Shown in pieces: positions 15,670 to 21,111 of a stretch of DNA of 21,111 bases. A program made the translations under genes and the position numbers. The DNA comes from a virus (Duplodnaviria > Heunggongvirae > Uroviricota > Caudoviricetes), in IMG/VR virus record IMGVR_UViG_3300045988_115574, positions 1 through 21,111 of that record, one strand, 5' to 3'. Within the stretch, counting starts at the first letter, position 1. Each line of letters starts with the position of its first letter. The notes under the pieces are model-generated. The model searched no databases. It was not told the origin of the DNA and saw only the letters and a program-made list of their open reading frames with translations.

Positions 15670-16236
15670 TTATTTTATAGTTTTTATGAATTCTTTATTA
15701 AATCCCTTAGCTTCTCCGGGGTATCTTCCAAAGACAATTTTTATAAAAACAGAAAAAATAAAGATAGCAACGCTTAACAACAGTTGCAGTATCATTGGAA
15801 CCCAAAGAACTACAGGCTCTATATTCATGAAACCAAATATTCTTCCGGCGATCATGGCGAAGTACCACACTGTTATCAGCAAACTTAGTGGCATATGAAT
15901 TACTGATATTACCAATCCAAGAGCATCAGTAATTCTATTTTCAAATTTTTCAGGGGAAAACTTTTCTTTAAGGTAATTCAGTGCGCAGGTCTCATTCTCT
16001 GGATTTTCAGCATTTTTCCCTATAGCAATAGAAATCTCAGATATCCTTGATTCAATTCTTTTGCGTTTAATAAAACTAGAAAAAAAGAACCACGCAATCT
16101 GCAACCCTATCCCCATAAATAGAGTTGCGGCAACTAGCACAGCGTAACTCATAGAATCAGACACACCAACCTCTTTAGTTTTTCTAGTTACTTTGTCACG
16201 ATAGGATATGCGAATTGATAAAACTAAATTGCGCAC
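15670..16236 (-). CDS. AT-rich gene for a 3-TM inner-membrane protein in the position of P22 sieA (superinfection exclusion); start uncertain (GTG 16236, or internal GTG/ATG near 16170-16152)
   Basis: Minus-strand ORF convergent with gp16 (22-nt gap). Three hydrophobic helices ([74 protein letters not shown]) separated by a ~50-aa charged loop. Local GC is far below the structural genes. Confidence 0.6.
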
Positions 16237-16381: not shown

Positions 16382-16963
16382 CTATCTAAACGTTGCACAC
16401 GACTCATCTATCCATTTTTCATAAAATTGTATACCGAGATAGGCAAGAACAGATGGATGTATATCAACAAGCTTTTCGCCAAGATGTTCTGTTGGAGGTG
16501 GATAATCTTTGCCTTGGTTTCTTACGGTTATAGGCATAGTTGTTGCTGGATGAAACTCAACTATCATAGGGTCGCCTTCGTATTTTGCTATTTTCCCTGT
16601 TGAATCAATGATTAACTCTTTAATATAATGGCTTCTTGCTCCCGGAAATGCCCCAAGAGTAGTATAAGGAGGTTCAAGTTTTGAGATTTCCATAGTGGAA
16701 TGATGATCAGCATTTCTTGCTTGGTGAAGGTAAGCAAGTGTTTTGTCTGTTTTTCTAAGCATGAACTTTTGGTTGAAGTGGCTGCTAAATTTTCCACTAA
16801 CCGGCTTTGTTGCACAGAGCAACTTACTGAAAGACTTTTCTATATGCCCAAGACATTCTCGCCAGTGCATTTCAAAATCATCATGGTTTGTAGATGATTT
16901 CATCTGCTCTAGGCACTTTTTAGCTGCGATGATTTCTTTTTTTGCTGGGTTGTAATCGATCAT
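16382..16963 (-). CDS. hypothetical 193-aa soluble protein, translationally coupled to mnt (hkcC-like position in P22 immI)
   Basis: ATG at 16963-16961 overlaps the mnt stop (ATGA on the minus strand). SD aagga 9 nt upstream. AT-rich. No motif I can assign. Confidence 0.65.
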   Translation of the reverse strand: MIDYNPAKKEIIAAKKCLEQMKSSTNHDDFEMHWRECLGHIEKSFSKLLCATKPVSGKFSSHFNQKFMLRKTDKTLAYLHQARNADHHSTMEISKLEPPYTTLGAFPGARSHYIKELIIDSTGKIAKYEGDPMIVEFHPATTMPITVRNQGKDYPPPTEHLGEKLVDIHPSVLAYLGIQFYEKWIDESCATFR

Positions 16964-17214
16964 TTTGCATCCTTGCCATACATGTTTTTAAGTGTCTCAA
17001 ATACCACAGACTTGAACTGTTCAGCCTGCATCTCGGCTAATCGTTCAGCTTCATTGCGATAACCTTTTACAGGAGATGGTCTCGATAGAGCATCTTGGAC
17101 GATTTGCAACAATTCTGAGTTCATTGATCTACCATTTGACTCTGCTCTGTATTTTAATTTTTCTCTTACTTCCAAAGGCATGCGGAAGTTAAAGTGCGGA
17201 TCATCTCTAGCCAT
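16960..17214 (-). CDS. mnt: Mnt repressor (ribbon-helix-helix, Arc/MetJ family)
   Basis: Translation MARDDPHFNFRMPLEVREKLKYRAESNGRSMNSELLQIVQDALSRPSPVKGYRNEAERLAEMQ... is near-identical to P22 Mnt as recalled. Confidence 0.95.
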   Translation of the reverse strand: MARDDPHFNFRMPLEVREKLKYRAESNGRSMNSELLQIVQDALSRPSPVKGYRNEAERLAEMQAEQFKSVVFETLKNMYGKDAK

Positions 17215-17236
17215 GCCATCACTCCAAGTTAGTGTA

Positions 17237-17265
17237 TTGACATGATAGAAGCACTCTACTATATT
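17237..17265 (+). promoter_or_regulatory. Pant promoter (-35 TTGACA 17237-17242, 17-nt spacer, -10 TATATT 17260-17265)
   Basis: Consensus-like sigma70 hexamers read directly, driving arc-ant rightward. The Arc operator sits between the hexamers and the Mnt operator at the start site, as described for P22 immI. Confidence 0.7.
17242..17262. promoter_or_regulatory. Arc operator
   Basis: ATGATAGAAGCACTCTACTAT matches the 21-bp P22 arc operator as recalled; lies between the -35 and -10 of Pant. Confidence 0.75.
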
Positions 17266-17270
17266 CTCAA
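17242..17270 (-). promoter_or_regulatory. Pmnt promoter (leftward; -35 TTGAGA = plus 17265-17270, -10 TATCAT = plus 17242-17247, 17-nt spacer)
   Basis: Hexamers read on the minus strand upstream of mnt; overlaps Pant face to face. Confidence 0.6.
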
Positions 17271-17290
17271 TAGGTCCACCGTGGACCTAT
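17270..17290. promoter_or_regulatory. Mnt operator (perfect 21-bp palindrome, core AGGTCCACCGTGGACCT)
   Basis: ATAGGTCCACCGTGGACCTAT is exactly self-complementary around 17280; its reverse complement reads the known P22 Mnt operator core AGGTCCACGGTGGACCT. Confidence 0.8.
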
Positions 17291-17304
17291 ATTGTGAGGT
17301 GAAC

Positions 17305-17466
17305 ATGAAAGGAATGAGCAAAATGCCGCAGTTCAATTTGCGGTGGCCTAAAGAAGTATTGGATTTGGTACGCAAGGTGGCGGAAGAGAATGGTCGGTCT
17401 GTTAACTCTGAGATTTATCAGAGAGTAATGGACAGCTTTAAGAAGGAAGGGCGTATTGGCGCGTAA
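17305..17466 (+). CDS. arc: Arc repressor
   Basis: [53 protein letters not shown] (53 aa) is near-identical to P22 Arc. ATG at 17305 with SD gaggtg. The longer ORF from 17242 is rejected. Confidence 0.95.
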
Positions 17467-17534
17467 AGTTGAAGCCCCAACTGCGGGAACAGTCAGGGCT
17501 TCTGTTGTCAGTAAATTCGTGGAGAAAAACCAAC
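17467..17534 (-). ncRNA. sar: probable sar antisense RNA, complementary to the arc-ant intercistronic region and ant ribosome-binding site
   Basis: By analogy with P22. Candidate leftward -10 TATACT (plus 17541-17546) just inside ant. Imperfect hairpin gaagccc(17471-17477)/gggcttc(17496-17502) near the arc stop. Ends are approximate. Confidence 0.4.
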
Positions 17535-18437
17535 ATGAATAGTATAGCAATTTTAGAAGCAGTGAACACCTCTTACGTACCTTTCAATGGTCAGCAGATT
17601 ATCACCGCCATGACTGCCGGAGTTGCATATGTTGCGATGAAGCCAATCGTTGAAAACCTTGGAATGAGCTGGTCAACGCAGCAAACAAAACTCATGAAGC
17701 AGATTAGCAAATTCAACTGTGTTCATATGAACATGGTTGCCGCTGATGGTAAGCTTCGTAAGCTACTCTGCCTTCCTTTGAAGAAGTTAAATGGATGGCT
17801 GTTCAGCATCAACCCTGAGAAAGTTCGTGCTGACATCCGCGATAAACTGATTCAGTACCAGGAAGAATGCTTTACTGTGCTGCATGACTACTGGACGAAG
17901 GGAAAGGCAGAAAATGCACGTAAGAAAACATCTGTTGATGACAGGACTCCGCTTCGTGATGCTGTAAATATGCTAGTCAGCAAAAAGCATCTAATGTACC
18001 CAGAAGCTTATGCAATGATTCATCAGCGTTTCAACGTGGAAAGTATTGAAGAGCTTGATTCATCTCAGATACCGCAAGCAGTAGAGTACATCCACAGGGT
18101 AGTGCTTGAAGGCGAGTTCATCGGCAAACAAGAGAAGAAAACCAACGAGCTTTCTGCAAAAGAAGCAAACAGCCTTGTATGGTTATGGGATTATGCCAAC
18201 CGCTCACAGGCATTATTCCGCGAACTGTATCCGGCGCTAAAACAAATTCAATCGAACTATTCCGGCAGATGCTACGACTACGGTCATGAGTTCTCGTATG
18301 TTATCGGAATGGCGAGAGACGTTTTAATAAACCACACACGAGATGTTGATATTAATGAGCCAGACGGACCAACGAATCTTTCCGCATGGATGAGACTTAA
18401 GAATAAAGAATTACCTCCTTCAGTACATAACTACTGA
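17535..18437 (+). CDS. ant: antirepressor Ant (AntA-type N-terminal domain)
   Basis: 300-aa ORF from ATG 17535 with GGAGA 9 nt upstream. N-terminus [44 protein letters not shown]... matches P22 Ant as recalled. The TTG-initiated extension from 17469 is rejected. Confidence 0.9.
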
Positions 18438-18455
18438 CAGATAACCAACGCAACG

Positions 18456-18480
18456 ACCCAGCTTCGGCTGGGTTTTTTTA
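18456..18480 (+). terminator. rho-independent terminator after ant
   Basis: Stem acccagc / gctgggt with loop ttcg followed by TTTTTTT. Confidence 0.75.
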
Positions 18481-18537
18481 TGCCCAAAATTCACCGTAGC
18501 CATGCTGCGGCGATTCCTTGTATCTGGAGCAAATTAA

Positions 18538-20511
18538 ATGACAGACATTACAGCCAATGTGATCGTATCGATGCCTTCGCAACTCTTCACTATGGCTCGT
18601 TCTTTTAAAGCCGTAGCTAATGGCAAAATTTATATCGGTAAAATTGACACTGACCCGGTAAATCCTGAAAACCAGATTCAGGTTTATGTGGAGAACGAAG
18701 ACGGCTCTCACGTTCCTGTTTCACAACCAATCATCATTAACGCCGCTGGTTACCCTGTATATAACGGACAGATTACCAAGTTCGTTACTGTGCAAGGCCA
18801 TTCTATGGCTGTATATGACCAATATGGTTCCCAGCAATTTTATTTTCCGAATATTCTAAAATACGACCCTGATCAGCTACAACTACGACTGTCATCTCCT
18901 GATGGCTTTAAATTAATAGGCCAGTGCGATAGTTTTGACGAACTGCGTTCTATTGTTCCGGAGCTTGAAGGCCAGAGGATTTTGTTAAAAGGCTGGCATT
19001 CTGGATCCCTGTTGGGCGGTGGTGAGTTTATCGCAAAGGCGACCTCTGATTTAGATGATGGAGGTGTTGTCGCTGGTAGTGGTGCTCTGAAGTGGGTTCG
19101 CTCTGCATTCGATATAACACCAGAGGATTTTGGTGTTACGCCATCTGATACGGATACTTTGTATGGACTTCAGGGGGCGGTTAATGCAGCATCAAAATTT
19201 GGTGTTCGCGTTATCATAACTGAAGAAATGGTATATCCAATTTCTGATAACATAGTTGTTCCTAGTAATGTGACTATGGAATGGCTGAAACCATCATTTA
19301 TTACGCTAACTGCCAAATCAACTCTTGGTGGAGTGATTGCTGTGCTTGGGACTTATAGCAACCCTGTTGACAATGTGCGTTTCATTAATCCACATATAGA
19401 TGGTGGGAATATTGGTTATCCTACGTATGATGTGCAAGGTGAAAATGGTATCAGCGGTAGTAAATGCAGAAACGTTTTGTCGATTGGTGGCGTGATACGT
19501 AACTGCCGCAGAGGTTCGTCATCGCAATACTCATCAGGCGGGAAGGCGTTTAATTGGGAATACGGCGTTGATAATATAAGAATTGAAGGTGCAAAAGTTG
19601 AAAGTTGCTCATCAGCATTTGAATTTGTTGGTCGTGAAAATGGTGTTGGCGAATGGACTACTGCAACAGACGTTCACTACTATAATTGTTCCGCTGAGAA
19701 CTGTGATCGAGTGATAAGAAACGTCAGAGAAATGGTGACACCAAGCTATGCTACAGATATTTCGTTCGGTAGTTTCAAAGATATCTACGCGCTAAACTGC
19801 GGGTTGGGATCAGTGCCGGGTAAGGAGTTAGACGAGGGGTTGGTATTGCTGGATCGCTCAGCGGATATTGATGTTGAGCTCACCGCAATGAATTCTGCCA
19901 ACTACGGCACGATTGACAGCCCACTGAGAGTAAGAAGAGGGTACAACAACAAAATCAACATAATGTTTAATGGCGTATGCCGTGTCGATGTTAACCTTAA
20001 AGGACCCAATAACGCTCAACCAAGTGGTGAGTTACGTGGCAACCATATCAATATCCAGCATATCGGGGCGTGCACCAATATCGTTGATATAACACATGGT
20101 GATAACAAGATTATAGGTAACCACATTTCAATTACAGCAGGTACTCTTATTGGCAATTTATTAACAGATTCTTGTGATGCACAACCGCAAATTGTAACTG
20201 TGACGAACGGTGTTTCTGGAGTTTCAGTATCAGGATCTCTGAATGATATTTTTGATAATTTTAATGGAGGATTTCCAAGTGGTACGTCTGCAACAACAAT
20301 TGGTAATGTAAGGATAAATAGTACCTCTTTTTCGTTTTCAAATGATAGCACAAGATTGTTAAGCTCGAACAGACTGCGGCTTGGGTCTTATGACACCGAC
20401 AAGATTGAGTTGACTAACCTCTCAATGAAACTCACTCTTCCTACTTCAGCTACCGGTCTGGCGAGTGGTGAATGTTACTGGAATAATAACGTACTAACGC
20501 GAGTTCCGTAA
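18538..20511 (+). CDS. 9: tailspike protein: P22 gp9-type N-terminal head-binding domain fused to a different receptor-binding domain
   Basis: 657-aa ORF with GGAG 9 nt upstream. First ~110 aa [60 protein letters not shown]...LKYDPDQ match the P22 tailspike N-terminal domain as recalled; the rest does not resemble the P22 endorhamnosidase domain. Confidence 0.9.
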
Positions 20512-20519
20512 TTCATTTA

Positions 20520-20538
20520 GAAGCCCCAAAAGGGGCTT
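20520..20538. terminator. GC-rich hairpin shared by the convergent tailspike and integrase genes (possible bidirectional terminator or sib-like element)
   Basis: aagcccc aaaa ggggctt, 9 nt from each stop codon. Flanking U-tracts are weak on both strands, so terminator function is uncertain. Confidence 0.4.
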
Positions 20539-20546
20539 AAGGCGGA

Positions 20547-21111
20547 TCACTCCACCTTTTCATCAAGCCAATCCGCCCACCACTGCATCATCTCCCTGCG
20601 TTTATCGAGATACTGAGCATGGTTGTAAATCCCACGCACAGATCCGCCGTTGGCATGTGCCAGTTGCACTTCAATAGCGTCAGCAGGCCATTCGTGCTCG
20701 TTCATAATTGTGCTGAATTCATGCCTGAACCCGTGACCGCTTTCCAGACCCTCATAGCCGATTCGTTTGATCACAAGTAATACCGCGTTCTCGCAGATTG
20801 GCTTCTTCTTATCGTTACGCCCGGCAAAAACAAACTCTGATACTGGTTTGGTGATGGAGCTTAACGTAGTGAGAAGTTCAACCACCTGGTCCGACATCGG
20901 GACCACATGAATCTTGCGTCCCTTCATCACACTGGCGTCGATAGTGATAATCCTGTTTTCAAAATCGACGTTATTCCATAGCATAGAACGAAGCTCTTTC
21001 GTTCTTAGGGCTGTGTAGCGTAAAACTTTGGTCGCAATGAGAGATACAATACTTCCTGAAAATGTTGCCAGTGCTTTGTTGAATGCCGGGATCTGGTCTG
21101 CAGGAAGAAAC
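20547..21111 (-). CDS. int: tyrosine recombinase / phage integrase, C-terminal catalytic part (N-terminus beyond the window)
   Basis: Minus-strand frame is open from the window edge to the stop at 20549-20547. Translation ...LRYTALRTKELRSMLWNNVDFEN...HGFRHEFSTIMNEHEWPADAIEVQLAHANGGSVRGIYNHAQYLDKRREMMQWWADWLDEKVE carries the conserved Arg, His-x-x-Arg and Tyr of tyrosine integrases. Confidence 0.9.
   Translation of the reverse strand, partial: FLPADQIPAFNKALATFSGSIVSLIATKVLRYTALRTKELRSMLWNNVDFENRIITIDASVMKGRKIHVVPMSDQVVELLTTLSSITKPVSEFVFAGRNDKKKPICENAVLLVIKRIGYEGLESGHGFRHEFSTIMNEHEWPADAIEVQLAHANGGSVRGIYNHAQYLDKRREMMQWWADWLDEKVE

Follow-up and report, generated by a model that had tools for sequence, protein, structure and literature searches.

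Spikes of the P22 type are built from three chains whose N-terminal domains dock the spike to the tail, while their beta-helices bind a repeating polysaccharide along a groove, cleave it and in this way bring the virion to the membrane. Across the P22-like phages the anchor of ~115 residues is conserved, and the C-terminal parts that follow it show no recognizable sequence similarity (PMC2629481), the tailspikes of Sf6, HK620 and CUS-3 being the textbook case of one anchor carrying unrelated receptor domains (PMC2629481). How Lederbergvirus and Uetakevirus anchors trade receptor domains was systematised for E. coli in 2023 (PMC10408124), with anchor limits placed at 124 aa in HK620 and 205 aa in phiV10 (Pas et al. 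2023, PMC10408124). In the cassette described there, a gene for O-antigen modification is an optional component, and conserved flanking DNA motifs were found only in lytic genera (PMC10408124). It has also been reported that phiV10 is blocked by O-acetylation of O157 LPS (PMC11854483). The mosaic tailspike is thus textbook architecture (Villafane 2008; Pas 2023) and its principle has been known since at least 2008; what we describe here is a well-resolved further instance with an uncharacterised receptor subtype.

The stretch of DNA analysed, referred to below as the window, comprises the 21,111 nucleotides of IMG/VR record IMGVR_UViG_3300045988_115574 and, taken whole, makes up the late region of a P22-like prophage of the Lederbergvirus type. 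It contains Rz, terminase, portal, scaffold, coat, tail and ejection genes, followed in order by a SieA-like gene, mnt, arc, ant, the tailspike gene and, on the opposite strand, the 3′ end of an integrase gene. Like gp9 in P22, the tailspike gene closes the virion gene block and follows the immI region (mnt, arc, ant), and the Pfam matches directly upstream of it (Arc/Mnt, Arc and P22_AR_N/C) are syntenic with P22 and IME10. E. coli phage IME10 is the nearest phage record (94.6% over 58% of the window); P22 is 83% identical and aligns only up to nt 18506, just 5′ of the tailspike gene.

The P22-type immI region is complete at 16960-18437, with mnt on the minus strand and arc and ant on the plus strand. 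In the ORFs called for arc (74 aa) and ant (322 aa, starting at TTG) the start is probably placed too far 5′, the Arc domain starting at residue 25 of the one and P22_AR_N at residue 36 of the other. Between the gene-16 homologue and mnt lie two minus-strand ORFs without a Pfam match: that at 15670-16236 belongs to SieA-like superinfection exclusion (phrog_7745, E 2e-108), and that at 16382-16963 matches only phrog_23516, a PHROG of unknown function. A terminator-like hairpin sits between ant and the tailspike gene, and no sigma-70-like promoter was found on the plus strand 5′ of the tailspike gene, so that tailspike expression presumably depends on read-through of the late operon, as in P22. 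The features of the gene and its immediate surroundings are collected in Table 1.

Table 1. Tailspike gene of the window, its parts and its flanking features (positions in the window).
Feature	Position	Strand	Basis
Terminator-like hairpin GACCCAGC-TTCG-GCTGGGTT with T-run	18455-18474	+	Pattern scan, consensus match only
GGAG ribosome-binding site, 8 nt 5′ of the ATG	18526-18529	+	Read from sequence
Tailspike CDS (gene 9-type receptor-binding protein)	18538-20511	+	ATG, 657 aa and stop, uninterrupted
Head-binding domain (virion anchor), residues 1-113, closed by LKYDPDQ	18538-18876	+	Pfam PF09008
Linker LQLRLSS, residues 114-120, recombination junction between anchor and receptor module	18877-18897	+	DNA homology limits
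Neck module, ~residues 121-195, within the swapped unit	18898-19122	+	PF27114 precomputed on P0001
Right-handed parallel beta-helix body, ~residues 196-540 (approximate limits)	19123-20157	+	Predicted structure
Stretch with family-invariant polar residues, candidate substrate-binding or catalytic site	19399-19857	+	Family alignment
C-terminal beta-rich region, ~residues 541-657	20158-20508	+	Model secondary structure, pLDDT 73-91
Hairpin AAGCCCC-AAAA-GGGGCTT, 10 nt past the stop	20521-20538		Sequence comparison of window, L002 and L005
Prophage integrase gene, 3′ part, running off the window end	20547-21111	-	Pfam Phage_integrase, E 1.2e-39

An earlier sequence-only reading of this gene had proposed that its N-terminus is a P22 gp9-type head-binding domain closed by the conserved LKYDPDQ linker, and both proposals are borne out. 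PF09008 (Head_binding) matches at full length (model positions 1-113 of 113; E 6.6e-66, 220 bits against a cut-off of 24), the domain aligns to the Sf6 gp14 structure 7sg7 over residues 1-114 with ~9 differences in the printed alignment and to the P22 structures 2vky, 1lkt and 8tvr, and BLASTP against P22 gp9 (AF217253) gives 73% identity over residues 1-117, a span that includes the hinge at residues 107-113 (nt 18856-18876). With a PF09008 anchor of ~110 residues that ends in the YDPDQ hinge, the protein belongs among the P22-like tailspikes, and it has the overall design of P22 gp9, namely anchor, linker and beta-helix. The anchors of Sf6 gp14, HK620 gp9 and the CUS-3 endosialidase are likewise ~73-95% identical to it (HK620 72.8%), and the CUS-3 record annotates a "boundary sequence" at the junction of anchor and receptor domain.

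Beyond residue 117 the resemblance to P22 gp9 ends. The same reading had the C-terminal part departing from the P22 endorhamnosidase, and this is what was found: no sequence or profile similarity remains (the next best BLASTP match has E 0.68, and hhalign of the family profile returns a probability of 0.5%), such that sequence homology to the gp9 receptor domain (residues ~120-666) is absent from the window protein. The glycan recognised would also be a different one. Nor does P22 gp9 match the neck of the window protein (~118-217), in contrast to CBA120 TSP2, Klebsiella depolymerases and WceF, which do.

Two other prophage loci bear on the history of this C-terminal part. One of these, L005, is a prophage fragment from an isolate genome that was found by scanning IMG/VR with the family profile. 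Its tailspike ORF of 756 aa opens with an N-terminal domain of ~214 residues alignable to the N-terminal part of P0002, which among the relatives from the protein searches is the nearest that is not identical; this part of P0002 shares 81-86% identity with the epsilon15, phiV10 and TL-2011b tailspikes. Residues 215-756 of L005 are 97% identical in amino acids to residues 116-657 of the window protein. At the DNA level identity between the two stays under 43% ahead of nt 18898 and reaches 97.4% over 18898-20547, the homology beginning at codon 121 with PDGFK. Since the DNA shared with other genes for head-binding domains in E. coli genomes stops at gene nt 338-375, and that shared with L005 starts at nt 18898, the crossover lies within nt 18877-18897, immediately 5′ of the conserved PDGFK. 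These breakpoints (residue 120 in the window, residue 214 in L005) agree with the anchor limits of Pas et al. 2023, and, compared with PMC10408124, a junction between two temperate genera is here placed to ~20 nt. One receptor domain is therefore carried by anchors that are not homologous and belong to different genera, and the breakpoint falls where the anchor ends, as expected of an exchangeable cassette; domain swapping is directly demonstrated, its cross-genus sharing and breakpoints included, and the proposal that the receptor domain had been acquired by a swap at the linker is supported.

Like the window phage, L005 and P0002 are of single-spike temperate podoviruses of E. coli, with L005 sharing the module at 97% and P0002 offering a receptor domain that is a 45-51% relative; the difference from this epsilon15/phiV10/TL-2011b (Uetakevirus) type lies in the anchor, which in that type is a non-homologous domain of ~214 residues, and in an acyltransferase gene that the window does not have. 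Differences between the window and L005 cluster at 18906-19020 and are nearly gone distally (99.6-99.8% identity over 19601-20511). The second locus, L002, is of the P22 type: the anchor (18538-18821) differs from that of the window by 5-10% in DNA, whereas the receptor module (within 18822-20511) differs at just 6 positions in ~1,600 nt. This disparity implies, besides the cross-genus swap, a further recent recombination near the end of the head-binding domain. Taken together, the two comparisons mean that the receptor module has moved recently, both between genera and among P22-like backbones. The flank of L002 and the backbone of L005 are both E. coli (99.5% and 95-98% identity), and a protein 99% identical to the window tailspike, P0001, is located in a P22-like E. 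coli prophage.

T7-type, Tail_spike_N and other N-termini occur in the more distant members of the family, and Phapecoctavirus DIJ07P2, a myovirus, has a 40% relative. The homologue in that phage (OZ035771.1; L004 5545-7781) is split into two overlapping ORFs of 379 and 371 aa, pointing to either a frameshift or a fault of assembly in this record, which is unannotated.

At its 3′ end the shared module is marked by the hairpin past the stop codon, and the homology to L005 stops at nt 20547. In both L002 and L005 a gene that encodes a membrane acyltransferase (Acyl_transf_3) and runs convergently comes after the hairpin, the two copies being 98% identical, and these loci have 2,681 nt in common at 98.3%, spanning the receptor module and the acyltransferase gene. 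When the corresponding segments were compared (window 20512-20547, L002 12014-13344, L005 7301-8356), the window proved to be without a 1,331-bp segment of L002, such that the hairpin adjoins the integrase gene, whose nucleotide sequence is 95% identical to that of the L002 integrase. No trace of the acyltransferase was found by tblastn elsewhere in the window, and the L005 acyltransferase has no PHROG match and no tblastn match in 50,697 phage records. A putative O-antigen-modification gene directly behind the receptor-binding protein is thus present in L002 and L005 and absent from the window.

The gene has more than the two parts of anchor and receptor domain, since anchor, linker, neck, beta-helix and a C-terminal beta-rich region can be told apart. 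The neck is homologous to the pre-helix region of CBA120 TSP2 (5w6p/6w4q), Klebsiella depolymerases (7lzj/7vyv) and Pantoea WceF (6tgf), and is conserved across many tailspike types. PF27114 "Phage_tail_beta" is precomputed on P0001, P0002 and P0014, with no PF27114 match for the window protein in the Pfam copy used, and the pLDDT of the neck in the monomer model is only 57-76. The beta-helix anticipated for the C-terminal domain is recovered in the predicted structure, which has a right-handed parallel, pectate-lyase-like fold, and the two Gly/Asn/Val/Ile-rich stretches that had been singled out as typical of it are both present, at residues 279-293 and, as NHINIQHIG...NHISI, at residues 502-532. 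By sequence the window protein has no match to PF12708 (Pect-lyase_RHGA_epim) or PF13229 (Beta_helix) at E<=1, and PF12708 is reached by only 6 of the 37 family members. The C-terminal region may serve in trimerisation.

Identity to P0002 is uneven along the protein: it is 88% over residues 115-218, falls to 33-50% within the body of the helix and is back at 70% over residues 601-637, which points to conserved flanks around a divergent body that would bind the glycan. In DNA, the neck (18898-19190) is 82% identical to L001 8658-8950, the epsilon15-type spike gene of P0002, and 88% identical in protein; conserved flanks round a divergent core could represent internal recombination sites or could reflect structural constraint. 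In base composition the receptor domain is not poorer in GC, as had been thought: the head-binding part has a total GC of 41.5% and the remainder of the gene 42.8%; only third-codon-position GC is lower in the receptor part (35.5%, against 40.4% in the anchor), and the gene as a whole (42.6%) lies below the window mean (47.7%). As a sign of foreign origin GC was rejected, the totals of anchor and receptor being equal within noise. Domain architecture, breakpoints and modular history come directly from the comparisons made here, and the fold from the structure model.

The expected Asp/Glu-rich active-site region exists only in a loose sense: what stands is a family-invariant polar set that includes D288, E302, K336, E341, D439 and R440. 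Within the stretch listed in Table 1 this set also contains N303, and N452, Y456 and R467 are invariant just downstream of it, each residue being kept in 34-37 of the 37 members of the family (alignment A1). Such residues make up a candidate active or binding site.

By every search made, the receptor domain is rare and without a characterised relative. Residues 216-657 belong to no Pfam or PHROG family, and against the PDB (phmmer and family profile) gave only helix-cap matches, the profile touching just that region of 3zpp, 4mxn, 2pyg and 3jur. In 5,426 complete E. coli genomes megablast did not find the domain, ~1,100 of them matching in the anchor part only; in a collection of 50,697 phage records no relative exceeded ~40% identity, the best being that of Phapecoctavirus DIJ07P2; and a single-protein scan of GTDB species-representative genomes found none. 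A word-indexed search of 5.8 billion proteins with residues 216-657 returned 3 matches, or 5 with the profile, all unnamed, and an exhaustive HMMER search of 1.84 billion proteins returned only 68 cluster representatives, likewise unnamed. The protein cluster of P0001 comprises 48 sequences, every one of them from an assembly of raw reads. The receptor subtype probably lies outside those that have been characterised, as judged from the search of phage records rather than from direct comparison with the subtypes of PMC10408124.

The explanation that accounts best for these findings, and one in which we have considerable confidence, is that of a P22-like E. coli tailspike in which an anchor is joined to a recombined beta-helix unit that binds and cleaves a surface polysaccharide. 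Residues 1-113 are the conserved anchor, which would plug a trimeric spike into the tail, and residues 121-657 an exchangeable receptor-binding unit made up of neck, right-handed parallel beta-helix and C-terminal beta-rich region. This unit was gained by recombination in the linker at nt 18877-18897, ends at the hairpin past the stop, and also circulates on epsilon15-type (Uetakevirus) anchors. It would most likely bind one particular surface polysaccharide of E. coli, with O-antigen as the most probable one, and cleave it, allowing the virion to work its way down to the outer membrane. Trimer formation, enzymatic activity, the O-antigen substrate and hydrolase over lyase chemistry are what we infer from these comparisons. 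A hydrolase is favoured because of the four invariant carboxylates, a lyase being possible, and O-antigen is favoured over capsule mainly, and indirectly, because of the acyltransferase linked to the module in its relatives.

It is with respect to substrate and chemistry that the strongest competing explanation arises, in which the same architecture has capsule (K antigen), colanic acid or some other exopolysaccharide as its receptor and the domain is perhaps a lyase. P22-type anchors do occur on capsule-specific spikes, with the CUS-3 endosialidase among the anchor matches, and the structural neighbours of the helix include the capsule lyases K5 2x3h and Klebsiella K1 7w1c as well as Klebsiella and Acinetobacter capsule depolymerases. 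The conserved K336, R440 and Y456 would also fit a lyase, although four invariant carboxylates are more typical of the glycoside-hydrolase tailspikes of P22, Sf6 and HK620, which counts against this explanation. Anchor and neck together find their best match in phrog_8280, "colanic acid degradation", but the match covers residues 1-239 only and stops short of the helix. It also counts against a capsule receptor that the Acyl_transf_3 gene behind the spike in L002 and L005 corresponds to the published O-antigen-modifying arrangement of Lederberg- and Uetakeviruses (PMC10408124), in whose prophages the receptor-binding protein generally tracks the host O-serogroup (PMC10408124). On balance we regard a capsule or exopolysaccharide receptor as unlikely. 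Of the described spikes that share the neck, CBA120 TSP2 (5w6p/6w4q) and Klebsiella Depo32/DpK2 (7vyv/7lzj) have other anchors and a helix identity of only 12-17%, and their substrates are the O157 O-antigen and the K2 capsule.

Two further explanations concern the function of the helix and its history. That the beta-helix is a non-catalytic glycan-binding adhesin, or modifies the glycan (as an epimerase or deacetylase, for example) rather than cleaving it, seems to us quite improbable. That there is no mosaic at all, and that ordinary descent from a P22-like endorhamnosidase, with divergence in place, gave rise to the C-terminal part, is close to untenable. Both domains are beta-helices, with HK620 and Sf6 among the structural matches, and the fold could go back to a very distant common ancestor; yet an anchor 73% identical to that of P22 is followed by an abrupt drop to nothing, and T7-type, Tail_spike_N and Phapecoctavirus N-termini also carry relatives of the domain. 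Descent by vertical divergence from P22 gp9 is effectively refuted by the 97% identical module on the non-homologous epsilon15-type anchor of L005 and by the sharp breakpoint in the DNA.

More tentatively, and with the odds rather against it, the recombined tailspike may be part of something larger. The receptor domain could found a small family of beta-helix glycan depolymerases, with the active-site signature D288, E302-N303, K336, E341, D439-R440, N452 and Y456 and a glycan specificity that no phage has yet been assigned, and together with the acyltransferase it could form a two-gene "recognise then mask receptor" cassette, transferred between Lederberg- and Uetakeviruses as a single unit whose limits are the PDGFK junction and, in the window, the terminator-like hairpin. 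If this were true, the window would be a derivative in which recognition was kept and masking lost.

The rare receptor subtype could extend the catalogue that relates tailspike subtypes to E. coli serogroups, with uses in typing, reporter phages and engineered tailocins, and three loci in two phage genera with breakpoints fixed to ~20 nt are useful for the design of chimeric spikes. The two naturally occurring kinds of prophage, one with the linked acyltransferase and one lacking it, could show whether that enzyme masks the receptor.
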